In this document: positions 49,401 through 59,258 of the stretch, in pieces
Position numbering within the stretch: position 1 is the first letter of the stretch
How the letters are laid out: the number at the start of each line of letters is the position of its first letter
Source of the DNA: an uncultured Chitinophagales bacterium
GTDB taxonomy: Bacteria; Bacteroidota; Bacteroidia; Chitinophagales; JADIYW01
Direction: 5' to 3'
Assembly (NCBI GenBank): GCA_964642875.1
Contig: CAZXRF010000008.1
Span: forward strand, 2,241-66,240
DNA: 64,000 nt
Position numbers and translations under genes: made by a program
Notes under the pieces: generated by a model
The model's input: only the letters and a program-made list of their open reading frames with translations
Told to the model about the DNA's origin: nothing
The model's database searches: none

Positions 49401-50921
49401 TTATAATTTTTTAAATAATCCTCCAAATTCCATCATTTTCATTAAATCCGATACTTTTATTTTTCCAGTCATAAAGGCTTCTTGAGGATTGAGTTTGCCC
49501 GTTTCTACGGCAATGTAAGTTCCTGAATCAGTTGATACAATAATGTCTACAGTCGACGGTTGACTGTCTACAGTCAACAAAGTGAGTTCTCCGTCTTTTA
49601 TTTGAACTAAACGATTCTTTTCATCTTCAATTTCAAACAACACACTCAATTCTTTTCCTTTTGCCTTTTCAGCTTTAAATCTTGCTGGCAAAGTTTTAAA
49701 AATTGACTCTACTGTATGTTCTACTGTGGTCTGTTGACTGTTGTCTGATTGCGGTTTCCCGTAAGAAACATCATCAATAATCATCTTCGCTAAGATTTCT
49801 CGCATAATTTCCGATGTTCCACCACCAATAGTTCCAATTCTGGAATCTCTGAAGGCACGTGCTATTTTGTATTCTTCCATATAACCATAGCCCCCAAATA
49901 CTTGTAGTATTTGATAGGCACATTTGTCCGCTAATTCAGATGCCAGTAATTTTGAAATGGAACTTTCTTTCACCGCATATTTTCCGTCATTGTGCATACG
50001 ACAGGTTTGTAAAACAAAAAATTTCGTGGCTTCGGTTTCGGCTGCTAACTGCGCCACTTTATGTCGTAGTACTTGAAATTTATTAATTGGCCGTCCAAAT
50101 GCCTGTCGTTGGCTCATGTATTCTAATCCGTATTGTATCATGCCTTCGCACGCAGCATAGCCCATGATAGAGCCTGCTAAACGTTCTAATTGCAATCCGC
50201 CCATTAAATAATAAAACCCTTTTCCTTCTTCACCTAATAAATTTTTTGCAGGTACTTTTACATTGTCAAAATGCAACTCCGCAGTATCGGAAGCATGCCA
50301 GCCTAATTTTTTTAATTTTGTTTTGGAGATACCTTCGCTGTTTAAATCTACTACTAATAAACTAACACCTGCTGCACCTGCACTTGGATTAGTTTTACAA
50401 ACCAAGATTACAAAATGACCGTAAACACCATTGGTGATAAAGGTTTTAGAACCATTGACAATATAGTAATCGCCATCTTTTATAGCACGGGTTTGTATAT
50501 TGGCAACATCGCTACCTGCGCCTGGTTCTGTGATGCCGATACAACCAATCTTTTCTCCTGCAACGGCTGCTTTGAAAAATGTTTCTTTTAAATATTCACT
50601 TCCGTGATGCAAAATATACGGACTGCTCATGCACACCTGCACGGCTGCGGTGATGGCAAATCCGCCGGAGAATATTTTTGATACTTCTTCTAACATAATA
50701 ACGGTATAAAAGAAGTCGAGGTTACTGCCGCCGTATTGTTCTGGAAAGCTGAGGCCGAAGTAGCCCATTTCGCCAAATTTTTTCCAAAATTCACGAGGAA
50801 TTTTTCCATCTAATTCCCATTGGTCAATGTGTGGAAGTGCTTCTACTCTTAAAAAATCTTGAATGGATTTTCTGAACATTTCATGTTCTTCTGTAAAGTA
50901 ATAAGATAGTGCTGTGCTCAT
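49401..50921 (-). CDS. Acyl-CoA dehydrogenase (AtuD/FadE13-like) fused to a C-terminal SCP2 domain
   Basis: GITEPGAGSDVA, NGSKTFITNG, LQVFGGYGY, TIGGGTSEIM; tail IAVETGKLNPQEAFMTGKIKVS. Confidence 0.92.
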   Translation of the reverse strand: MSTALSYYFTEEHEMFRKSIQDFLRVEALPHIDQWELDGKIPREFWKKFGEMGYFGLSFPEQYGGSNLDFFYTVIMLEEVSKIFSGGFAITAAVQVCMSSPYILHHGSEYLKETFFKAAVAGEKIGCIGITEPGAGSDVANIQTRAIKDGDYYIVNGSKTFITNGVYGHFVILVCKTNPSAGAAGVSLLVVDLNSEGISKTKLKKLGWHASDTAELHFDNVKVPAKNLLGEEGKGFYYLMGGLQLERLAGSIMGYAACEGMIQYGLEYMSQRQAFGRPINKFQVLRHKVAQLAAETEATKFFVLQTCRMHNDGKYAVKESSISKLLASELADKCAYQILQVFGGYGYMEEYKIARAFRDSRIGTIGGGTSEIMREILAKMIIDDVSYGKPQSDNSQQTTVEHTVESIFKTLPARFKAEKAKGKELSVLFEIEDEKNRLVQIKDGELTLLTVDSQPSTVDIIVSTDSGTYIAVETGKLNPQEAFMTGKIKVSDLMKMMEFGGLFKKL

Positions 50922-50949: not shown

Positions 50950-51036
50950 ACCGCAAAGTTTTTTAAGTTTTTTTCGCAAAGTCAGCGAAGTTATTTCTTT
51001 GATAACTCTGCGTAACTTCCTTGTGCTCTTTGCGGT
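50950..51036. repeat. Extragenic nested-hairpin element, copy 1 (empty)
   Basis: ACCGCAAAG...TCGCAAAG...AGTTAT-loop-ATAACT...CTCTGCG...CTTTGCGGT. Confidence 0.9.
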
Positions 51037-51070
51037 TTAATTATATATTTGTTTTTTAATTTTATTTTTT

Positions 51071-51156
51071 ACCGCAAAGTATTTTAAGTTTTTTTGCAAA
51101 GTCAGCGAAGTTATTTCTTTGATAACTCTACGTAACTTCCTTGTGCTCTTTGCGGT
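51071..51156. repeat. Extragenic nested-hairpin element, copy 2 (tandem duplicate of copy 1)
   Basis: Near-identical to 50950-51036 at a ~121-bp period, including the T-rich left flank. Confidence 0.9.
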
Positions 51157-51161
51157 TCTTA

Positions 51162-52673
51162 TTATTTAAACTTTTGAAAAAGAGTTCCAAACTGCATCAT
51201 TTTTCCTAAATCACTTACTTGGACTTTTCCACTCATAAATGCTTCTTGCGGATTAAGTTTTCCTGTTTCAATAGCAATGTAAGTTGCTTGGTTAGTTGTT
51301 ACTATCAAGTCCACAGTTGACGGTCGACGGTCGACCGTGGACAAAGCTACTTGCTTGTCTTTTATTTGAACCAAATGATTTTTTTCATCTTCAATCTCAA
51401 ACAACACATTTAACACTACTCCATCTGCTTTTTCTTTTTTTAATCTTGAAGGTAAACCATTGATAATATCATCAATACTTACATCTTTAGATTGAGGTCG
51501 GTCGACTGTGGGCTGATAGCTTTTATCATCAATAATCATTTTCGATATAATCTCCAACATAATTTCGGATGTTCCGCCGCCGATAGTTCCTAATCTTGAA
51601 TCTCTAAAGAAGCGAGCCGCTTTGTATTCTTCCATATAGCCATATCCGCCAAACATTTGTAAACATTGATAGCCTAATTTATCGGATAATTCAGTAGCCA
51701 AATATTTCGACATAGAAGCTTCTTTAACACAATATTTTTTCTCGTTATGCATTTGGCAAATTAAATAGGTATAAGTTTTTATACTTTCTAACTCTGCACT
51801 GAGTTGAGCCATTCGATGGCGCAACACTTGAAATTTATTGATGCTTTTTCCAAATGCTTTGCGTTCACTCATATATTGCAAAGTATATTGAATCATCAAT
51901 TCGGATGCAGCAATTGCACCTAAAGCTAAAGTCAATCTTTCCAATTCAAAACGCTGCATGATGTAGTAAAACCCTTTGTTTTCTTCACCTAATAAATTGG
52001 AAATTGGCACTTCAACATTATCGAATGCAATTTCTGCTGTGTCACTGGCTTTCCAACCTAATTTCTTCAAATTGGTTCTTATAACACCTTTTGCATTTCC
52101 TTCCACCAAAATCATTGAAATGCCGCTTGCACCTGTGTTGGCCGTTTTACAAGCTACAATTAAATAATCAGCTAAATAACCATTGGTAATAAAGCATTTG
52201 CTACCGTTGATGATGTATTTATCGCCTTCTTTTCTTGCTGTAGTTTTAATTCCTGCCACATCACTTCCAGCGTGAGGTTCGGTAATGGCTAATCCACCAA
52301 CAATTTCTCCTTTAATAGATTTTACAAGGTATTTTTCTTTAAGATAATCAGAAGCTTCGTGTTTTAGATGCGACATTGCCAAATACGGATGTGCAGAAAT
52401 ACTAGCAGCAAAGCCACCACTCCAACATTTACCTACTTCTTCTATAAAAATAACATCATACCAAAAATCTAAATTCGAGCCGCCGTATTTTTCTTCTTGT
52501 GAAATTCCAAAAAATCCCATATCGCCAAAGCGTTTAAAAATTTCTCTGGGCAAAAAACCGTCTTCTTCCCATTGGTCGATGTGTGGCATCACTTCTTTAT
52601 CCAAAAAATCGCGTAAGGTTTTACGGAATAAATGATGTTCTTCTTTTAAATAGTATTGTTCTAAATTTGTCAT
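51162..52673 (-). CDS. Acyl-CoA dehydrogenase fused to a C-terminal SCP2 domain (paralog)
   Basis: AITEPHAGSDVA, NGSKCFITNG, LQMFGGYGY, TIGGGTSEIM; tail IAIETGKLNPQEAFMSGKVQVS. Confidence 0.92.
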   Translation of the reverse strand: MTNLEQYYLKEEHHLFRKTLRDFLDKEVMPHIDQWEEDGFLPREIFKRFGDMGFFGISQEEKYGGSNLDFWYDVIFIEEVGKCWSGGFAASISAHPYLAMSHLKHEASDYLKEKYLVKSIKGEIVGGLAITEPHAGSDVAGIKTTARKEGDKYIINGSKCFITNGYLADYLIVACKTANTGASGISMILVEGNAKGVIRTNLKKLGWKASDTAEIAFDNVEVPISNLLGEENKGFYYIMQRFELERLTLALGAIAASELMIQYTLQYMSERKAFGKSINKFQVLRHRMAQLSAELESIKTYTYLICQMHNEKKYCVKEASMSKYLATELSDKLGYQCLQMFGGYGYMEEYKAARFFRDSRLGTIGGGTSEIMLEIISKMIIDDKSYQPTVDRPQSKDVSIDDIINGLPSRLKKEKADGVVLNVLFEIEDEKNHLVQIKDKQVALSTVDRRPSTVDLIVTTNQATYIAIETGKLNPQEAFMSGKVQVSDLGKMMQFGTLFQKFK

Positions 52674-52688
52674 GTTTTTGTTGTTTTA

Positions 52689-53170
52689 TAACCGCAAAGG
52701 ATATTAAATTTTCCGCAAAGTTCGCAAAGGTTTATAATCCGTTTACTATTCTTTTAATCCCATGTTTTAAAAGTGTAACATTAAAGTTTATAAGCAATCC
52801 AAGCTTAAAATTTCCGAGTTTTAAGTAAGTAAGCGTTTGTGCTAAATGTATGTCGTTTATTGCTTCTACGCTTTTAATTTCTATCACTAATTTATCTTCC
52901 ACCAATAAATCAATTCTATAACCGCAATCTAATTTCACTTCTTCAAAAACTAATGGCATTGCTTTTTCTTTTTCAACTTTAAAGCCTTCTTTTCTTAATT
53001 TGTAATACAAACATTCTTGATATGCACTTTCTAATAAACCTGCACCTAATGAATTGTGTACCTCAATAGCTAAACCAATAACAATATGAGATAATTCATT
53101 CTCTTTCATTCTTATTTTAATATATCCTTTTTTACTTACTCTGCGATAAACTCCGTGTACTTTGCGGTTA
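52689..53170. mobile_element. Candidate GxxExxY cassette: hairpin element split at its loop by a nuclease-like gene
   Basis: Perfect 11-bp terminal inverted repeat TAACCGCAAAG / CTTTGCGGTTA; left and right halves match the two halves of the empty copies; mobility is inferred. Confidence 0.6.
52732..53109 (-). CDS. GxxExxY protein (PD-(D/E)XK nuclease-like)
   Basis: LGAGLLESAYQECL, YRIDLLVEDKLVIEIKS, QTLTYLK, GLLINF. Confidence 0.93.
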   Translation of the reverse strand: MKENELSHIVIGLAIEVHNSLGAGLLESAYQECLYYKLRKEGFKVEKEKAMPLVFEEVKLDCGYRIDLLVEDKLVIEIKSVEAINDIHLAQTLTYLKLGNFKLGLLINFNVTLLKHGIKRIVNGL

Positions 53171-53175
53171 GTAAA

Positions 53176-54039
53176 TTAATTAATATTCTTTAAATTCAGC
53201 ATTTCTCTTGTTTCGGAAATAGTTGCAATTTCTCTGTCTAACATACGTGCTAATTTCACTCCGGCTTCTACACATTCACCATTCGATTTTGCCATTTCTC
53301 CATTCGGTAAATAAAAATTATCCTCCAATCCTACTCTAAAATTTCCGCCCATTGTACAAGCAATTGCAGCTAACTGCCATTGTTTTCTACTTATACCAAT
53401 CACTTGCCAAAATGCTCCTTCTGGTACTTGTTTAATTTGATGCATTAGATTTTCTACTGTCGCAGGAATACCGCCAAGCACACCCATTACCAAGCTGTAA
53501 CACGCATTGTCAGGAATTAAACCCATTTCTCTAAGTGGCTCTACGTTATGAATATGTCCGGTGTCAAAACATTCCATTTCCGGACAAATGTTATTTTCAT
53601 TCATTGTTTTTACCACTTTAATCATGGTATCAAAAGAATTTTCAAATACTGCATTCCAATAAAATTGTTTTTGCTTTTTAGAGAATATAGCATAGTTCAT
53701 ACTACCCATATTAAATGCTGCCATGTCAGGTTTTGTAATAGGTAAATGTTTAATTCTTTCTGCTACAGAAAGACCAATTGCACCAGTGGAAAAATTAATA
53801 ATTACATCAGTAGAATGCTTGCGTACTTCAGCTTTTATTTCTTCAAACACTTCAGTACGCCAACTTGGAATTCCGTTGTCTTCGCGTGCGTGTATATGTA
53901 CGATGCTAACGCCTGCATCTACAGCACGTTTGGCTTCTTCACCCAATTCTTTTGGTGTGTATGGAATAGCAGGACAATGTGAACGGTTGGTGGCTGCTCC
54001 TGTGAGTGCTGCACTTAGTATTAATTTTTTGTTTGACAT
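53176..54039 (-). CDS. Beta-keto acid cleavage enzyme family (BKACE/Kce, DUF849)
   Basis: SAALTGA, AGVSIVHIHAR, STG, NMGSMN, PEMECFDTGH, RVGLEDN. Confidence 0.9.
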   Translation of the reverse strand: MSNKKLILSAALTGAATNRSHCPAIPYTPKELGEEAKRAVDAGVSIVHIHAREDNGIPSWRTEVFEEIKAEVRKHSTDVIINFSTGAIGLSVAERIKHLPITKPDMAAFNMGSMNYAIFSKKQKQFYWNAVFENSFDTMIKVVKTMNENNICPEMECFDTGHIHNVEPLREMGLIPDNACYSLVMGVLGGIPATVENLMHQIKQVPEGAFWQVIGISRKQWQLAAIACTMGGNFRVGLEDNFYLPNGEMAKSNGECVEAGVKLARMLDREIATISETREMLNLKNIN

Positions 54040-54079
54040 ATTTTGATTTTTTTTGTTTGACTCATGATTTTATTTTTTT

Positions 54080-54162
54080 ACCGCAAAGGATTTTAAGTTT
54101 TTTCGCAAAGTATGTAAGATTTTCTTAGAGAACTTTGCGATTTCCTTTGTGTACTTTGCGGT
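54080..54162. repeat. Extragenic nested-hairpin element, copy 4 (empty)
   Basis: ACCGCAAAG / CTTTGCGGT, TCGCAAAGT / ACTTTGCGA, inner TAAGA-TTT-TCTTA. Confidence 0.9.
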
Positions 54163-54169
54163 TAGCATT

Positions 54170-54994
54170 TTATTCTCCAATCCAATTTGGTTTTCGTTTT
54201 TCCTTGAATGCTGTTAATCCTTCTGCTGCATCTTTGCTTTGTAAACATTGCATCAACATCGCATGCAAATATTTGTGTTTTTCGTCAGCATTTTTTGTTT
54301 TCATTTCGTGGTAAGCTTTTAATCCCAAGCGTATAGCAGTAGGTGATTGTTCTTTGATTGCTGCAATTAATTCTTGCACTCGATTTTCTAATTGATTTGA
54401 CATTACTACTTCAGAAACAATTCCAATTTCTTGTGCTTCTTTTGCTGTCAATGTTTTGGCACGAATGCATAAATCTAATAGTTGGCGTGCCGACATTAAT
54501 GGTTCTAAAGTTGCCATTACTTGAAACGGAAAAATACCTCGTTTTACTTCGGGTAATCCAAATTTGGCTTCTTCTACTGCGATGACGTGCGTGCAACCAC
54601 CAATCATTAAAAATCCACCGGCATATACATCGGCGTGTACTTGTGCAATGCAGGGTTTGTGCAAGCCGTTGAATTCATCACCGAGCTTGACCATATCTTT
54701 TGGCATAGGTATAGTAGATTGTTTTTCGGCAGTGTCTTCTCCTGCAAATGCTTTTAAATCTGCGCCTGCGCAAAAAGTGGGACCATTTGCTTTTAAAACT
54801 ACGCACCAAATAGCATTGTTATAATGTGCATAGGCGAGTGCATAGGCTAATTCATTTGCTAATGGCATGTGAAAGGCATTGCGTTTTTCCGGACGATTAA
54901 GTGTGATGGATAACACATTTTCCTTTTCTTCTACAAGGAGATAAGCGAAACTTTGTTCAGAAAAATTACTGATGTCTTGTTGTGAGTAGAGCAT
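54170..54994 (-). CDS. Enoyl-CoA hydratase/isomerase (AtuE-like)
   Basis: ITLNRPEKRNA, FCAGADL, FGLPEVKRGIFP, EGLTAFKEKRKP. Confidence 0.9.
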   Translation of the reverse strand: MLYSQQDISNFSEQSFAYLLVEEKENVLSITLNRPEKRNAFHMPLANELAYALAYAHYNNAIWCVVLKANGPTFCAGADLKAFAGEDTAEKQSTIPMPKDMVKLGDEFNGLHKPCIAQVHADVYAGGFLMIGGCTHVIAVEEAKFGLPEVKRGIFPFQVMATLEPLMSARQLLDLCIRAKTLTAKEAQEIGIVSEVVMSNQLENRVQELIAAIKEQSPTAIRLGLKAYHEMKTKNADEKHKYLHAMLMQCLQSKDAAEGLTAFKEKRKPNWIGE

Positions 54995-55002
54995 ATTTAT
55001 TT

Positions 55003-55030
55003 ATGATTTATGAATTCAGATTTGAGATTT
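55003..55030. repeat. Orphan 7-bp array
   Basis: ATGATTT ATGAATT CAGATTT GAGATTT. Confidence 0.8.
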
Positions 55031-55044
55031 ATTTTTTTATTTTT

Positions 55045-55120
55045 ACCGCAAAGTGTACAAAGTTTTTCGCAAAGTACGCAAAGATTTTCTTGGTGAACTT
55101 TGTGTTTTTTCTTTGTGCTT
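55045..55120. repeat. Extragenic nested-hairpin element, copy 5 (right end degenerate)
   Basis: ACCGCAAAG..TCGCAAAG..CGCAAAG..CTTTGTG..CTTTGTGC; lacks the terminal CTTTGCGGT. Confidence 0.8.
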
Positions 55121-55127
55121 TAAAACT

Positions 55128-55196
55128 TCATTTATTCATTACTACATTATTTCATTATTCTATTATTTCATTATTCTATTATTCCAATAATTCCAA
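55128..55196. repeat. Approximately 8-bp period array
   Basis: ACTACATT ATTTCATT ATTCTATT ATTTCATT ATTCTATT ATTCCAAT. Confidence 0.75.
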
Positions 55197-57212
55197 TTAC
55201 TCTTTCATTTTTAATAATAACGTTCCGTTTTCTACAAATTGTTTTTCATTGACATATATTTCTTCTACTTCGCCGTCGCTGTGGGCTTCAATGGTGCTTT
55301 CCATTTTCATAGAAATCATTTTTAATAAAGCATCGCCACTTTTTATTTTGTCGCCGGCTTTCACTAATACTGCTGTTATTTCGCCCGGCATGGGTGCAAT
55401 GTATGCACCTTTTACGGTTTCTTCCATCGGACTTGGAAATCTGTCTACACTATGTAAAACTATCTGTCCGAGTTGCGGCGAATGAACGAAATATTGATTA
55501 CCGTTTTTTGAGAAGAAAAATTTCCGACGAATATTATTTATTTCGAAAGTGTGCCAATTGTTTCGTAATTTCTCGCTACGCTCGAAATGACGGTGCTCAT
55601 TATTGGAATGGTGTTTTGAAGCGAAATGTTTATCTGCAAATGAAATCTGCAAAATGTTGTTTTCATTTTTATATTCTACTAAAAATTCAAAACCGTTGTA
55701 ACTGTATTTCTCTTGCTGTGCTTGGTAAAAATTATTGCGCCAGCCTGCCGGAACACCTTGCGCCAATGTTCTTTTATTTTCTCTTTGTAAAAAGCGATAA
55801 TGTTGTAATGCACAAGTTAAGATATCTAATGTCGCTTGCGGATAATTTTCACCTGTATATTGGAATTTTTTATCTAAGAAATGCGTATCGAAATTTCCAT
55901 TTTGGAAATCTTCGTTATGTAAAATATCAATTAAGAAATTTTTATTCGTTGTAAAACCCGTTAGTACCGTTTCTTGTAAGGCTAAAGTTAATTTAGCGAT
56001 AGCTTCGTTTCTGTTTTTTCCTTTAGCAATAATTTTAGCAATCATTGGGTCGTAGAAAGTAGAAATTTCTGAACCACTTTCAATGCCAGCATCATAGCGC
56101 AAACCATCTACAGTTGCAGGTATCCAATCGATAATTTTTCCTGTAACCGGCATGAAATTATTGGCGGCATCTTCGGCATATAAACGTACTTCAATGGCAT
56201 GTTCGTTTTGTTGGATTTCACCTTGCGAAAAAGGAATTGCTTGTCCTTGTGCTACTTCTATTTGCAATCGAACTAAATCTAAACCAGTAACTTCTTCGGT
56301 TACGGGATGTTCGACTTGCAGTCGTGTGTTGACTTCCAAAAAATAAAATGATTGGTCGGGAGCCACAATAAACTCTACTGTTCCCGCGTTATCGTATTGA
56401 ATAGCTTTGCAGGCTGAAACAGCAGCATCACCCATTTTTTTTCTTGTTTCTGCCGTGATAAAAGGAGATGGGCTTTCTTCTACTACTTTTTGATAACGAC
56501 GCTGAATGCTGCACTCGCGTTCAAAAATATGCACGGCATTTCCGTGTTTATCTCCAAAAATTTGAAACTCTATATGTCGAGCTGAATCGAAATATTTCTC
56601 TATTAAAAGCGTATCGTCACCAAAGCCATTTAAGGCTTCCGATTTTGCTTCGTAAATTGCTTTGTCTAATTCTTTTTCTTCACGCACGATACGCATTCCT
56701 TTTCCACCACCGCCGGCACTGGCTTTCAGCAAAACAGGAAAACCTATTTCAATTGCTTTAGATTTTATGGTAGCTTCACTTTGGTCATCTCCCTGATAGC
56801 CCGGAATGGTTGGCACATTATGCGACTGCATGATTTTTTTAGCACCAATTTTGGAGCCCATCACTTCAATAGCTTTAGGATGTGGTCCTACCCAAATCAT
56901 ATTTTCATCTATTACACGTTGAGCAAATTCTACACGTTCGCTCAAAAATCCATAACCTGGATGGATGGCATTTGCACCGGTTTTTTTTGCTGCATCAATA
57001 ATTTTATCGATTACTAAATACGATTCATTCGGTTGCTTACCACCGATACGAATGGCTTCATCAGCGAGTTTAACAAACAATGCATTTTCATCTGCATCAG
57101 AAAATACGGCAACAGTGGCAATGCCCATTTCCCTGCAAGTCTTAAAAATCCTGCAAGCAATTTCACCACGATTAGCAACGAGTAATTTGGTAATATTTAA
57201 AGTTTGAGACAT
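55197..57212 (-). CDS. Acyl-CoA carboxylase alpha subunit (biotin carboxylase plus biotin carrier; AtuF/AccA2-like)
   Basis: LVANRGEIA, IHPGYGFLSE, GGGGKGMR, ERECSIQRR, EVNTRLQVEHPVTE; C-terminal APMPG...ISMKME. Confidence 0.93.
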   Translation of the reverse strand: MSQTLNITKLLVANRGEIACRIFKTCREMGIATVAVFSDADENALFVKLADEAIRIGGKQPNESYLVIDKIIDAAKKTGANAIHPGYGFLSERVEFAQRVIDENMIWVGPHPKAIEVMGSKIGAKKIMQSHNVPTIPGYQGDDQSEATIKSKAIEIGFPVLLKASAGGGGKGMRIVREEKELDKAIYEAKSEALNGFGDDTLLIEKYFDSARHIEFQIFGDKHGNAVHIFERECSIQRRYQKVVEESPSPFITAETRKKMGDAAVSACKAIQYDNAGTVEFIVAPDQSFYFLEVNTRLQVEHPVTEEVTGLDLVRLQIEVAQGQAIPFSQGEIQQNEHAIEVRLYAEDAANNFMPVTGKIIDWIPATVDGLRYDAGIESGSEISTFYDPMIAKIIAKGKNRNEAIAKLTLALQETVLTGFTTNKNFLIDILHNEDFQNGNFDTHFLDKKFQYTGENYPQATLDILTCALQHYRFLQRENKRTLAQGVPAGWRNNFYQAQQEKYSYNGFEFLVEYKNENNILQISFADKHFASKHHSNNEHRHFERSEKLRNNWHTFEINNIRRKFFFSKNGNQYFVHSPQLGQIVLHSVDRFPSPMEETVKGAYIAPMPGEITAVLVKAGDKIKSGDALLKMISMKMESTIEAHSDGEVEEIYVNEKQFVENGTLLLKMKE

Positions 57213-57220
57213 AATTACTT

Positions 57221-57643
57221 CAGATTTCAGATTTATGATTTCAGATTTATTTTTTATTAGTATTCTTATATTTTAATGTTTTTAGAATAGCTGAAAATAT
57301 AGCAGTTAATTCATTTGTTTCTTTGATTAATTCTTCTATTCCTGTTAATTTATCTTGATTTGTTTCTTTTAATAATTCAAACCAATAAATACATTCATCT
57401 GCTTCTTCTTGAACGATATTTATTTTATTGATAAAATCTGGGTTTGATTTACCTCTTAATGAAGCACGATAATTGGCACCAACGGATGTTGATGCTCGAA
57501 TGATTTGTTTAATTATAATTACATTAGCATAAGTTGGTTTTAACGCTTCTGTAAATTTAATTGTGTTTATAGCAAACTTTTTAGTTCTATTTTTTAATTC
57601 TGATGAGTTCATTTTAAATCATAATTCCTAATTCTTAAATCTT
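57221..57643. repeat. Inverted 7-bp arrays flanking the four-helix-bundle gene
   Basis: Left 57221-57248 CAGATTT CAGATTT ATGATTT CAGATTT; right 57616-57643 AAATCAT AATTCCT AATTCTT AAATCTT (reverse complement of NNGAWTT). Confidence 0.8.
57247..57612 (-). CDS. Four-helix-bundle protein (23S rRNA IVP / TIGR02436-like)
   Basis: LKNRTKKFA, QIIRASTSVGANYR, FINKINIVQEEADECIYWFELL, ETNELTAIF. Confidence 0.92.
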   Translation of the reverse strand: MNSSELKNRTKKFAINTIKFTEALKPTYANVIIIKQIIRASTSVGANYRASLRGKSNPDFINKINIVQEEADECIYWFELLKETNQDKLTGIEELIKETNELTAIFSAILKTLKYKNTNKK

Positions 57644-57653
57644 AAATAAAATC

Positions 57654-59258
57654 TTACATTCTAAACACCCCCCAAGCATTTGTTCCTTTTACTTCATTTA
57701 TATAAGTCAATGCTAAAATTAACCCGAATACATGTCGTGTGTCTCTTGGGTCGATAATGCCATCATCCCAAAGTTGTCCGGTAGCAAAAAATGCATTACT
57801 TTGTTTTTCTATTTCCATTTTCATAAATTCTTTCATTTGTGCTGCTTGTGCTTCGTCGTATGGTTGACCGGATTTTATCGCAGCTTCTTTGCTGACCATT
57901 TGCATAACACCGGCTAGCTGTTCTGCACCCATAACCGCAATCATAGAGTTAGGATAAGAAAATAAAAATCGTGGATTATAAGCTCGACCGCACATGGCAT
58001 AATTTCCTGCACCATACGATGCACCCATCATTAAAGTAAACATAGGCACTTCGGAGTTGGAAACTGCATTAATCATTTTGGCACCATCTTTAATAATTCC
58101 ATTTTGCTCGTAATCTTTTCCCACCATAAAGCCAGTTATATTTTGAAGAAATAAAATAGGTGTGTGGTTCATATTGCACAACTGAATAAAGTGTGCACCT
58201 TTGTTGGAAGAATCATTGAATAAAACACCATTATTGCTAATAATTGCAATTGGATAGCCGTGAATTTTAGCGTAACCACAAACCAATGTAGCACCGTATT
58301 CTTTTTTAAATTCATGAAATTCGGAATCATCTACAATTCGGGCGATTACTTCTCTACAGTCATACGGAACTTTAGTATCAACAGATACAATTCCGAGCAG
58401 CTCATCGATAGGATATTTTGGTTCGTTGTAGTTAACTATTGGTCGATTGTTGATAGTTGGCTGGATACTAAGATTTGCCATTAACTCACGAGCAATTCTT
58501 ATTCCGTCTATTTCGTCTTGCGCTAAGTAATCGGAAACACCAGATATTTTTGAATGCATTTCTGCTCCGCCTAACGTTTCATCATCTACAATTTCATTCG
58601 TAGCCATTTTTACTAACGGTGGTCCTGCTAAAAAAACTTTCGCATTGTTTTTTATAAAAATAGTATAATCACTCATACCCGGAATATAAGCACCTCCAGC
58701 TGTAGAGTTTCCGAATACTATTGAAATTGTAGGCAAGCCTTTTTTTGAACGCCGTGTAATTTCTTTAAAATTATTGCCACCTAAATTAAATACTTGTGCT
58801 TGGTCGGGCAAATTTGCACCAGCACTCTCTACCAAATTTATTCCGGGCAAATTATTTTCCAGACCAATTTCGCCAATTCGTAATGCTTTTTTTAAAGAAG
58901 CAATATCAATGGCACCACCTTTGTTCGTGCCAACGTTTGCCGTAATCATACACATTTTACCCGATACAAAACCAATTCCTGCTACCATAGTTCCGCCAGT
59001 GCCAAAGCCTCCTTTAACTCCTAAACCAGCTAATGGGCATAATTCTAAAAATGGTGAATCTTGATCAAGCAGCATTTCAATGCGTTCGCGTGCCAGCATT
59101 TTACCTTTGCTTTTTGCTTTAGCAATATGTTTTTCATCGCCCTGAAATAATGATTGTTTTAGATGTTTTTCTAACTCTGTAATCTTACCTAGCATTTTTT
59201 CGTAATTCTCCTTGTACGAAGTAGATTGTGTATTTATTTTTGATTTTATAACAGACAT
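57654..59258 (-). CDS. Acyl-CoA carboxylase carboxyltransferase subunit (AtuC/AccD2-like)
   Basis: RERIEMLLDQDSPFLEL, VESAGANLP, STAGGAY, FLAGPPLVKMAT, QNITGFMVG, DDGIIDPRDTR. Confidence 0.92.
   Translation of the reverse strand: MSVIKSKINTQSTSYKENYEKMLGKITELEKHLKQSLFQGDEKHIAKAKSKGKMLARERIEMLLDQDSPFLELCPLAGLGVKGGFGTGGTMVAGIGFVSGKMCMITANVGTNKGGAIDIASLKKALRIGEIGLENNLPGINLVESAGANLPDQAQVFNLGGNNFKEITRRSKKGLPTISIVFGNSTAGGAYIPGMSDYTIFIKNNAKVFLAGPPLVKMATNEIVDDETLGGAEMHSKISGVSDYLAQDEIDGIRIARELMANLSIQPTINNRPIVNYNEPKYPIDELLGIVSVDTKVPYDCREVIARIVDDSEFHEFKKEYGATLVCGYAKIHGYPIAIISNNGVLFNDSSNKGAHFIQLCNMNHTPILFLQNITGFMVGKDYEQNGIIKDGAKMINAVSNSEVPMFTLMMGASYGAGNYAMCGRAYNPRFLFSYPNSMIAVMGAEQLAGVMQMVSKEAAIKSGQPYDEAQAAQMKEFMKMEIEKQSNAFFATGQLWDDGIIDPRDTRHVFGLILALTYINEVKGTNAWGVFRM

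Follow-up and report, generated by a model that had tools for sequence, protein, structure and literature searches.

A GxxExxY nuclease gene between inverted word arrays and four gene-less relatives in one operon of a Chitinophagales bacterium

The window analysed here is a 64,000-nt stretch of DNA from an uncultured Chitinophagales bacterium, whose genome (G000) comprises 2.82 Mb at 34% G+C. An acyl-CoA catabolism operon on the window's minus strand contains five related elements, which lie in four consecutive intergenic gaps and share one orientation. One of them encloses a gene of the GxxExxY family, a predicted small PD-(D/E)XK nuclease; in the other four, both halves are present and fused without a gene. 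We consider the five to be one family, formed by a complete GxxExxY cassette and four gene-less derivatives of an operon-riding nuclease-plus-repeat unit whose nuclease reads its own repeat words, and we put the probability of this reading at roughly 60%. The gene and its arms are passed on together, by descent and by transfer, as a single unit that decays into remnants and gene-less hairpins. Its place is between genes of one direction, with which it is co-oriented, just behind the stop codon of the upstream gene. Over evolutionary time it appears at new junctions, is replaced or decays, and it is shared between orders of the Bacteroidota. The elements were found in the gaps and in the orientation in which the original prediction, made from the letters of the window alone, had placed them, and its proposal that the gene and the hairpin halves form one unit, with the four hairpins as gene-less counterparts, is supported by the evidence presented below.

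A complete cassette and four gene-less hairpins

The gene-bearing element (52689-53170) is bounded by a perfect 11-bp inverted repeat, TAACCGCAAAG at one end and CTTTGCGGTTA at the other, which encloses an open reading frame (ORF; 52732..53109, minus strand) for a protein of 125 residues. Read along the gene, the 5′ arm (53110..53170, minus strand) runs TAACCGCAAAG-TA-CACGGAG-TTTAT-CGCAGAG and is followed by an A-rich leader of 30 nt that extends to the ATG. The 3′ arm (52689..52731, minus strand) begins right behind the stop codon, runs ACCTTTGCG-AA-CTTTGCGG-...-CTTTGCGGTTA and terminates in the 11-bp inverted repeat. Homologues of this arm are the 3′ halves of two gene-less copies (51071 and 54080) and, in the sister species G014, the 3′ arm of the orthologous cassette.

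All four gene-less copies are likewise read on the minus strand. The first (50950..51036) lies between the genes of two acyl-CoA dehydrogenases (ACAD2 and ACAD1) and has four words in each half; along the operon it reads ACCGCAAAG-2-CACAAGG-6-CGCAGAG-2-ATCAAAG, followed by a 6-nt loop and the words in inverted form, ending in CTTTGCGGT. The second (51071..51156) is a tandem duplicate of the first, and the 121-bp period of the duplication includes an A-rich tail. The third (54080..54162) occupies the gap between the genes of an enoyl-CoA hydratase (ECH) and a BKACE-family enzyme. The fourth (55045..55120), between the biotin carboxylase (BC) gene and ECH, is degenerate: its right terminal word is gone and its word type is mixed.

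Aligned with one another, the four gene-less copies have a mean column identity of 83%. When a profile built from the five copies was run against the whole genome, only those five were significant. The gene-less copies gave E values of 2e-22 to 1e-15 (6.7e-22, 2e-22, 1.1e-18 and 1.3e-15 in the order above), the two halves of the gene-bearing copy 1e-7 and 1e-3, and the next matches, at E >= 0.004, adjoin other GxxExxY genes. In the window, nine occurrences of ACCGCAAAG or its complement were counted, all within 50950-55053 (expected, 0.39; none of 100 shuffles reached nine); the whole genome has 29. A pair of occurrences at C29:16265/16786 was rejected as a chance pair inside ordinary coding sequence.

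The arms are not plain stems. They are arrays of three to four heptamer words (CRCAAAG) whose outer ends read TTAACC...GGTTAA, and the start-to-start spacings of the words are 9, 11-13 and 9; among 78 close relatives, the modal arm has four words on the 5′ side and three to four on the 3′ side. Inverted word arrays flank all five GxxExxY genes of this genome, and each gene has a word of its own (CGCAAAG, CACTAAG, ACGGAT/ACAGAT and others); all five are sandwiched co-directionally between genes. In its complete form the unit consists of a 5′ arm of three to four heptamer words, a PD-(D/E)XK gene of 125 residues that fills the space up to the arms, and an inverted 3′ arm. A generic detector of inverted word arrays returned only eight loci with exact 7-mers; with 6-mers it was noisy, giving 65 merged loci against 13-19 in shuffles.

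Two of the other GxxExxY genes have additional repeats nearby. Behind the gene on contig C19 lies a tandem array of at least four 3′-arm units (ACTTTGCAAACTTCGC..CTTTGCGGACTTTGCA; G000:C19:5000-5225), and upstream of the gene on C21 there are two complete hairpins (C21:26200-26376). Extra arm copies arise near cassettes, as at these two places and in three gaps of the operon.

Much of what the original prediction had claimed about anatomy, or had proposed to check, is borne out. The cassette shares its ends with copy 54080 over 17 bp and 12 bp and has the 11-bp inverted repeat, the family model scanned over the genome recovers the five copies with weak further matches beside GxxExxY genes, and GxxExxY genes elsewhere have split arms, in all five cases in this genome and, with at least two words on each side, in 50 of the 78 close relatives. 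Its four empty copies with nested arms do belong to the family; as to their form, copy 55045 is degenerate and copies 50950 and 51071 are tandem duplicates.

Orthologous junctions in the genus

We compared the junctions of the operon with those in 12 other genomes of the genus that carry it (uncultured Chitinophagales from activated sludge). Filled, hairpin-only and empty states were all found at the orthologous ACAD-BKACE junctions, a comparison that the original prediction had proposed. At the BKACE→ACAD2 junction, a GxxExxY cassette with CGCAAAG words is present in this genome, G014 (90% amino acid identity), G008 (82%, with an in-frame TAA) and G030. A gene-less hairpin with CACTAAG/CACAAAG words occupies the junction in G006 and G032, and an AT-rich tandem array in G018; it measures only 8-28 bp in G013, G001, G009 and G024, and 58-62 bp, with neither gene nor hairpin, in G015 and G017, the latter with a possible arm remnant (AACTTTGTG). 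At ACAD2→ACAD1, where this genome has its two tandem hairpins and G009 a hairpin of 2+2 words, GxxExxY cassettes with CACAAAG words are found in G008, G030 (frameshifted), G017, G006 and G015 (partial, at a contig end). Four relatives (G014, G018, G024 and G032) carry at this junction a cassette with AT-rich words and a gene for a four-helix-bundle protein, a second type of four-helix-bundle cassette beside the one described below.

The hairpin at ECH→BKACE is confined to this genome, apart from a decayed orthologue in the sister species G014. The junction spans 34-45 bp in six others; the site is empty, at 34-36 bp, in G008, G030, G018 and G017. At BC→ECH, the orthologous hairpin is intact in G018. 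Three relatives (G014, L028; G013, L030; G024, L032) have at that junction a GIY-YIG gene (115-130 residues, PF01541) framed by several ATTCCC-N8-GGGAAT hairpins, with a spacing that we take to be that of the Neisseria repeat. This gene and its hairpins are of the kind described for the nuclease Ssn (see Discussion), and they sit where this genome has the hairpin at 55045.

Sister taxa on the flanking-gene tree differ in state (G000 and G014; G008/G030 and G018; G009 and G024), and the junctions therefore turn over on a speciation time scale. Both G008 and G030 have two GxxExxY cassettes in the operon, one of which is broken, by the in-frame TAA at BKACE→ACAD2 in G008 and by the frameshift at ACAD2→ACAD1 in G030. 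In both, moreover, the 3′ arm of a four-helix-bundle cassette survives as a remnant behind the GxxExxY cassette at ACAD2→ACAD1, which shows that cassettes were layered or replaced. Compared with the 3′ arm of the G014 cassette, hairpins 51071 and 54080 have all the same words in their 3′ halves, down to a degenerate second one, CTTAAAA; the hairpins therefore derive from the cassette lineage with both arms intact. The other members of the genus have 0-4 gene-less copies each.

These comparisons bear on an alternative that the original prediction had also raised, namely that the hairpins are primary and the ORF homes into their empty loops. The gene sits exactly at the loop position, both arms of the filled copy match hairpin halves, and G006 and G032 have gene-less hairpins at a junction where other species carry the gene. 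However, the word type and the protein tail travel together, and the ORF is not seen in foreign arms. The nonsense and frameshifted genes and the arm remnants show decay from filled to gene-less, which argues for gene loss rather than gain. In addition, the ORF abuts or overlaps the inner words, with its stop codon TAG inside CTTAGTG and its ATG directly behind CACAAAG, an arrangement that is hard to reconcile with insertion into a loop. We regard homing into pre-existing hairpins as very unlikely.

At the level of strains, we compared contigs from eight metagenome runs of several studies, at ~98-100% identity to this organism. All five elements are in place in them, and differences within the elements comprise changes in unit number and single-base changes in loops only. 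Two runs examined as raw reads contained none from this organism. In copy 55045, a 9-nt unit, TTTTCTTTG, is inserted behind 55106 in runs X2 and X11, and an AT-rich array near this copy differs between strains by the gain or loss of one 8-nt unit (runs X11 and X15). The surrounding BC-ECH gap (window 54995-55044 and 55121-55196) is a patchwork of a GATTT-word array, the degenerate hairpin and the AT-rich 8-nt array (TTCATTAT/TTCTATTA).

The GxxExxY protein

The encoded protein scores 145.1 bits against TIGR04256 (cut-off 35) and 140.9 bits against PF13366 (PDDEXK_3; cut-off 22), which identifies it as a putative minimal PD-(D/E)XK nuclease. It contains the motif G24-x-x-E27-x-x-Y30, and D67, E77 and K79 are the predicted catalytic residues. 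These six residues are invariant in an alignment of 26 sequences and are kept in all five paralogues of the genome, which share only 31-59% identity. The AlphaFold2 model (pLDDT 95.7) has an alpha-alpha-beta...alpha-beta core and a restriction-endonuclease-like fold. Its nearest neighbours in the PDB are Cas4 SSO0001, Pcal_0546, lambda exonuclease and MGME1, all of them weak matches (E >= 9e-4, TM about 0.5), and no solved structure homologous by sequence was found. As modelled, this is a PD-(D/E)XK domain of minimal size, like those of Cas4, RecB and lambda exonuclease, to which no solved structure is closely related.

The ratio dN/dS is 0.06 relative to the G014 orthologue and 0.06-0.09 over our comparisons, indicating strong purifying selection on the gene. 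Internal stops interrupt about 15% of the copies in the genus, whose genomes carry between 0 and 8 copies each. The family is large, with more than 8,000 relatives of PF13366/TIGR04256 among the matches listed. In the literature we found no assigned function for PF13366/TIGR04256, almost no papers, and none linking the family to repeats.

Residue 122 and the second base of the word

Word type at base 2 is uniform within a cassette in 67 of the 71 cassettes of our first set (27 CGC, 40 CAC; the other 4 are mixed). Word types are mixed more often in the gene-less hairpins (5 of 19) than in the cassettes of both sets (6 of 126; p = 0.006, in a small, non-independent sample). Three gene-less hairpins of other genomes (G019:C145:4055-4138, G011:C377:967-1050 and G005:C17:6383-6467) combine a CGC left arm with a CAC right arm or contain a mixture; judged by their words, they look like hybrids of two cassette types.

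To identify the part of the protein that covaries with the word, we calculated mutual information with base 2 over 63 cassettes. Three residues stand out, 125 (0.89 bits), 122 (0.78) and 124 (0.45); every other column stays at or below 0.27. Ile122 goes with CAC words, and Val or Ala122 with CGC words; the protein of the window has V122, in the tail VNGL. This rule holds at 59 of the 63 genome loci and at all 45 independent metagenome loci (42/42 with the motif and 3 without it). Nearest-neighbour prediction of the word type from the protein core was correct for 47 of 63. The core does not separate the types (identity 0.750 within a word type, 0.742 between), and pairs that are 90% identical in the core differ in tail and word alike. 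The signal in codon 122 is confined to its first position, and neighbouring synonymous sites carry none. Because codon 122 lies upstream of the first 3′ word, overlap of the gene with the arm does not explain the signal at this residue. The sequences compared are related and their synonymous sites are saturated. Covariation at word positions 4-6 yielded nothing robust, the best mutual information being 0.41 in a many-state column.

The case that the C-terminal strand (model residues 118-122) reads base 2 of the word is good but not conclusive. We think it rather more probable than its opposite that the nuclease binds its own words through this strand and acts at the ends of the element. The substrate would probably be DNA, since it is only at that level that the two arms share a word, which is on the top strand at the left and on the bottom strand at the right.

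Pairing between the two arms

We compared the arms of 18 hairpins of the genus and 28 cassettes with their own partner and with the arm of another element. Hairpin arms matched their own partner at 0.84 in the words and 0.54 in the spacers, and the arm of another element at 0.85 and 0.65. For cassettes, the corresponding values were 0.87 and 0.64 with the own partner and 0.79 and 0.61 with another element. The arms match each other because both follow the family word consensus. Among the orthologous cassettes of G017, G006 and G008, nearly all words are identical, the spacers are only 50-60% identical, and synonymous sites differ by ~50%. By these comparisons, an arm does not evolve in step with its partner, and what is conserved is the repeated word, in mirror-image arrays. 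Folded as DNA, only copy 54080 is much better than its shuffles (z -6.9, the best fold); the others have z values of -1.9 to -2.3 (-2.3 for copy 50950). The original prediction had taken the paired inner stems of the empty copies as a sign of selection on structure, a pattern that comes from two lineages only and fails in the larger arm comparison. Such selection is not supported.

The same data weigh on the possibility that the element works at the level of RNA, like the intervening sequences (IVS) of 23S rRNA. The arms would then pair in the transcript and direct RNase III cleavage or stabilize the mRNA, the nuclease gene would be a passenger, and the gene-less hairpins would be intercistronic processing or stability signals. 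Yet partner arms are no more complementary than non-partners, and the spacers do not pair above the family background. Three of the four hairpins are only marginally above shuffles, the gene-bearing copy pairs only its terminal 11 bp, and a search of the sense strand found no terminator-like sites. The conserved feature is a repeated word, one base of which tracks a residue of the encoded protein. Speaking for an RNA-level element are the co-orientation of all elements with transcription, their position between cistrons, the fold of copy 54080, and the presence in the same operon of a 23S_rRNA_IVP-family gene that is packaged alike. There is also a precedent in the Coxiella IVS, described as a selfish element in 23S rRNA that contains an S23p-protein ORF (PMC4990558). 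Taken together, we judge this explanation to be quite unlikely. Strict co-orientation may reflect selection: if reversed, every hairpin would have a T-run behind it on the operon transcript and might terminate transcription.

Spread beyond the genus

Proteins with ~80% identity are found in Flavobacteriales, Bacteroidales, Cytophagales, Sphingobacteriales, Marinilabiliales and Ignavibacteriota; cultured carriers are Paenimyroides aestuarii, Pedobacter agri, Flavobacterium pectinovorum DSM 6368 and Brumimicrobium aurantiacum. The BKACE enzyme of the operon, in contrast, shows 57-61% identity in three genomes from other families of the same order, and 78% in one more such genome. The best 80 genome loci, with proteins 64-90% identical, represent at least 48 distinct genomic contexts, and the neighbouring genes are co-oriented at 82-88% of them. 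The same arms are found in other orders in unrelated contexts: in Paenimyroides aestuarii, in the gap between a DUF1015 gene and a YggS-like gene (Ala_racemase_N family); in a Bacteroidales genome, behind a glycoside hydrolase gene; and in a Flavobacteriia genome, between a methyltransferase and a helicase gene. The Paenimyroides group provides an independent filled/empty case, in which two species have the junction filled and three more have one of 12-37 bp. Among the best 80 loci, TTAACC stands at the left end in 29 of 52 cases and GGTTAA at the right end in 36 of 59, so that TTAA flanks CCRC...GYGG; the empty sites compared are too diverged to decide on a target-site duplication.

Several routes could have produced this distribution. 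The activity of the nuclease might insert, excise or copy the element, either in a transposase-like manner or by cutting alleles that lack it, a possibility towards which we remain sceptical. Cutting of element-less alleles, as in intron-less homing, would fit the allele-like patchiness at fixed junctions. Alternatively, host recombination would move the cassette and the nuclease would only favour its retention. A further scenario, integron-like cassettes whose palindromes serve as attC-like sites for a tyrosine recombinase, can be given almost no weight. The integrase model TIGR02249, with a cut-off of 265 bits, has its best match in the genome at 98, a score on a par with generic recombinases; the flanking metabolic genes have the same order in relatives without hairpins, and the arms are word arrays, not R/L boxes. 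The resemblance to integrons lies in co-oriented cassette genes that are separated by imperfect palindromes and have no recognisable promoter of their own, sigma-70-like matches being at shuffle level in a scan that does not cover Bacteroidota promoters.

The operon and a second cassette type

All genes of the operon lie on the minus strand. In transcription order, a carboxyltransferase gene (57654-59258) comes first, a four-helix-bundle cassette (57213..57653) second and the biotin carboxylase/BCCP gene (BC; 55197-57212) third, followed by the genes for ECH (54170-54994) and the BKACE-family enzyme (53176-54039), the GxxExxY gene, ACAD2 (51162-52673) and ACAD1 (49401-50921). The four-helix-bundle gene (57247-57612) matches TIGR02436 with 84 bits and PF05635 (23S_rRNA_IVP) with 57 bits. 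It lies between inverted arrays of NNGATTT-type words and is thus packaged in the same way as the GxxExxY gene, with inverted word arrays on either side. At the carboxyltransferase-BC junction, this cassette is also present in G014, G009 and G024; G018 has the word array only, and G001 a 45-bp gap.

In the 3′-end region of ACAD2, contigs of metagenome runs X2, X4 and X9 join position 51285 to 51397 and skip 51286-51396. The skipped stretch comprises 111 nt (37 codons) and contains a G+C-rich palindrome, GTCCACAGTTGACGGTCGACGGTCGACCGTGGAC. This could represent an insertion polymorphism, in frame, within the dehydrogenase's C-terminal extension; the sides of the joint measure 30 nt only.

Discussion

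The original prediction compared the locus to systems of repetitive extragenic palindromic (REP) sequences and REP-associated tyrosine transposases (RAYTs). This comparison is apt, and a closer published analogue is Ssn/SRM, in which a small GIY-YIG (cd10448) nuclease is paired with SRM/NTS hairpin repeats (Chenal et al. 2025, PMC11893778). In both cases, a small single-domain nuclease gene has cognate short repeats on both sides, the repeat variant tracks the enzyme variant, and gene-less repeats occur elsewhere. The differences concern the fold, which is PD-(D/E)XK in GxxExxY and GIY-YIG in Ssn, and the flanks, which are phased arrays of three to four heptamers in the former and a single 20-nt hairpin in the latter. 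Ssn repeats number hundreds across the genome, as opposed to five local copies here, and the activity of GxxExxY, unlike that of Ssn, is a prediction.

The likeness raises the question of whether GxxExxY could be a host-serving nuclease of the Ssn type, site-specific and probably acting on single-stranded DNA (ssDNA), which restricts incoming DNA or modulates transformation. The words would be its cognate sites or an autoregulatory operator, and the gene would spread by ordinary horizontal transfer and homologous recombination. Ssn itself sets the precedent, with 42% of its genes flanked on both sides by cognate hairpin repeats that are cut as ssDNA (PMC11893778). The strong purifying selection on the GxxExxY gene fits this explanation, as do the Ssn-like GIY-YIG genes that fill the BC→ECH junction of the same operon in three relatives and the nearest folds, Cas4, lambda exonuclease and MGME1, which act on ssDNA or DNA ends. 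Five cognate sites in one operon, however, fall far short of what a genome-wide role such as that of the Neisseria NTS repeat would need. The broken copies, the range from none to eight per genome, and the fact that each paralogue has its own word, with only its own flanks as sites, also argue against service to the host. We therefore consider this explanation unlikely.

Like the REP/REPIN-RAYT systems termed REPtrons, the GxxExxY gene sits between inverted copies of its own repeat, and gene-less palindromes occupy intergenic gaps. Unlike RAYT genes, it matches PF13366 only and has no HUH Y1 or Tyr motif; a true Y1_Tnp gene is found elsewhere in the genome. REPINs are numerous and dispersed, with tens to hundreds per genome, and RAYTs are mostly vertically inherited. 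The GxxExxY family, in contrast, has four gene-less copies in one operon, and its cassette is shared across orders at ~80% identity. The RAYT-like gene of this genome (G000:C18:2440-3177; PF01797 Y1_Tnp, HVH motif) lies between inverted arrays of (A)TGGTTCGTGTC units, also given as GGTTCGTGTC. A classical REPtron thus coexists with GxxExxY cassettes in one genome.

Comparison with other mobile DNA gives a similarly mixed picture. As in insertion sequences (IS) and MITEs (miniature inverted-repeat transposable elements), there are terminal inverted repeats (11 bp; consensus TTAACC), several internal repeats per end that resemble binding sites, gene-less derivatives that keep both ends, and presence or absence at orthologous sites between species. 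Unlike IS and MITEs, the unit has no recognisable transposase (DDE, HUH, serine or tyrosine) and no clear target duplication, it is strictly oriented to host transcription, and no movement was seen within populations. T4-like phages harbour free-standing homing endonuclease genes of the Seg and Mob types. The GxxExxY genes resemble these in being small nuclease genes wedged between conserved co-directional genes and patchy at the same junction among close relatives, and GIY-YIG and PD-(D/E)XK genes are interchangeable at such sites; they differ in having inverted word arrays. In Leptospira, 23S rRNA IVS contain an S23p/four-helix-bundle ORF. The likeness to IVS consists in a small ORF in the loop of a stem formed by inverted flanks, and in a neighbouring cassette that encodes a PF05635 protein. 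The GxxExxY element is part of an mRNA operon, however, and its stems are not kept by compensatory change. The heptamer repeats of Xanthomonas and Nostoc (PMC4692102) were set aside as a different thing, being contiguous and G-rich and described in a main text in which the term nuclease does not occur. The GxxExxY locus lacks the defining enzyme of Ssn, REP/RAYT, IS and IVS and is therefore a member of none of them; it works most like Ssn/SRM or REP/RAYT. No published description of a GxxExxY cassette with word arrays was found.

Several observations weigh against a word-reading nuclease-plus-repeat unit. The family has only five copies in the genome, all in one operon, unlike a freely transposing element, and in eight metagenome assemblies there was no gain, loss or excision of any of the five. 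G018 retains a hairpin without any intact GxxExxY gene. No consistent target-site duplication was found, as the original prediction had also reported, and the self-complementary TTAA may be either target or part of the inverted repeat. Residues 124-125 adjoin or overlap the 3′ arm, so that the signal there may be that of the DNA and not of the protein. The covariation is not corrected for shared descent, and the tree of the 103-column core is so weakly supported that it gives only two supported contrasts, which leaves a test by independent contrasts without power. Finally, we found no published measurement of the activity of any GxxExxY protein.

The word-reading unit remains the explanation that we favour. 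It gives the large family PF13366/TIGR04256 a concrete candidate role, that of a nuclease coupled to the phased word arrays on either side of its gene, offers a candidate rule that links a residue to a base of its specificity, and accounts for a common class of unannotated intergenic palindromes in these genomes. If the nuclease only reads its words, GxxExxY would add to Ssn a second fold among the small sequence-specific nucleases that are paired with genomic repeats, and would be a possible tool. If it drives the movement of the unit, the cassettes would represent a new, very small class of mobile DNA in operon gaps of the Bacteroidota and other phyla. In the broadest form of this idea, which we put forward tentatively and with more doubt than belief, GxxExxY proteins would be word-reading nucleases with a swappable C-terminal determinant, and their cassettes the smallest autonomous mobile DNA known (~0.5 kb), inserting behind stop codons at TTAA-like operon sites, crossing orders and leaving gene-less hairpins behind. 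Thousands of orphan proteins would then embody a chemistry of transposition or homing that is new, and would make up a natural collection of small nucleases whose specificity can be read.

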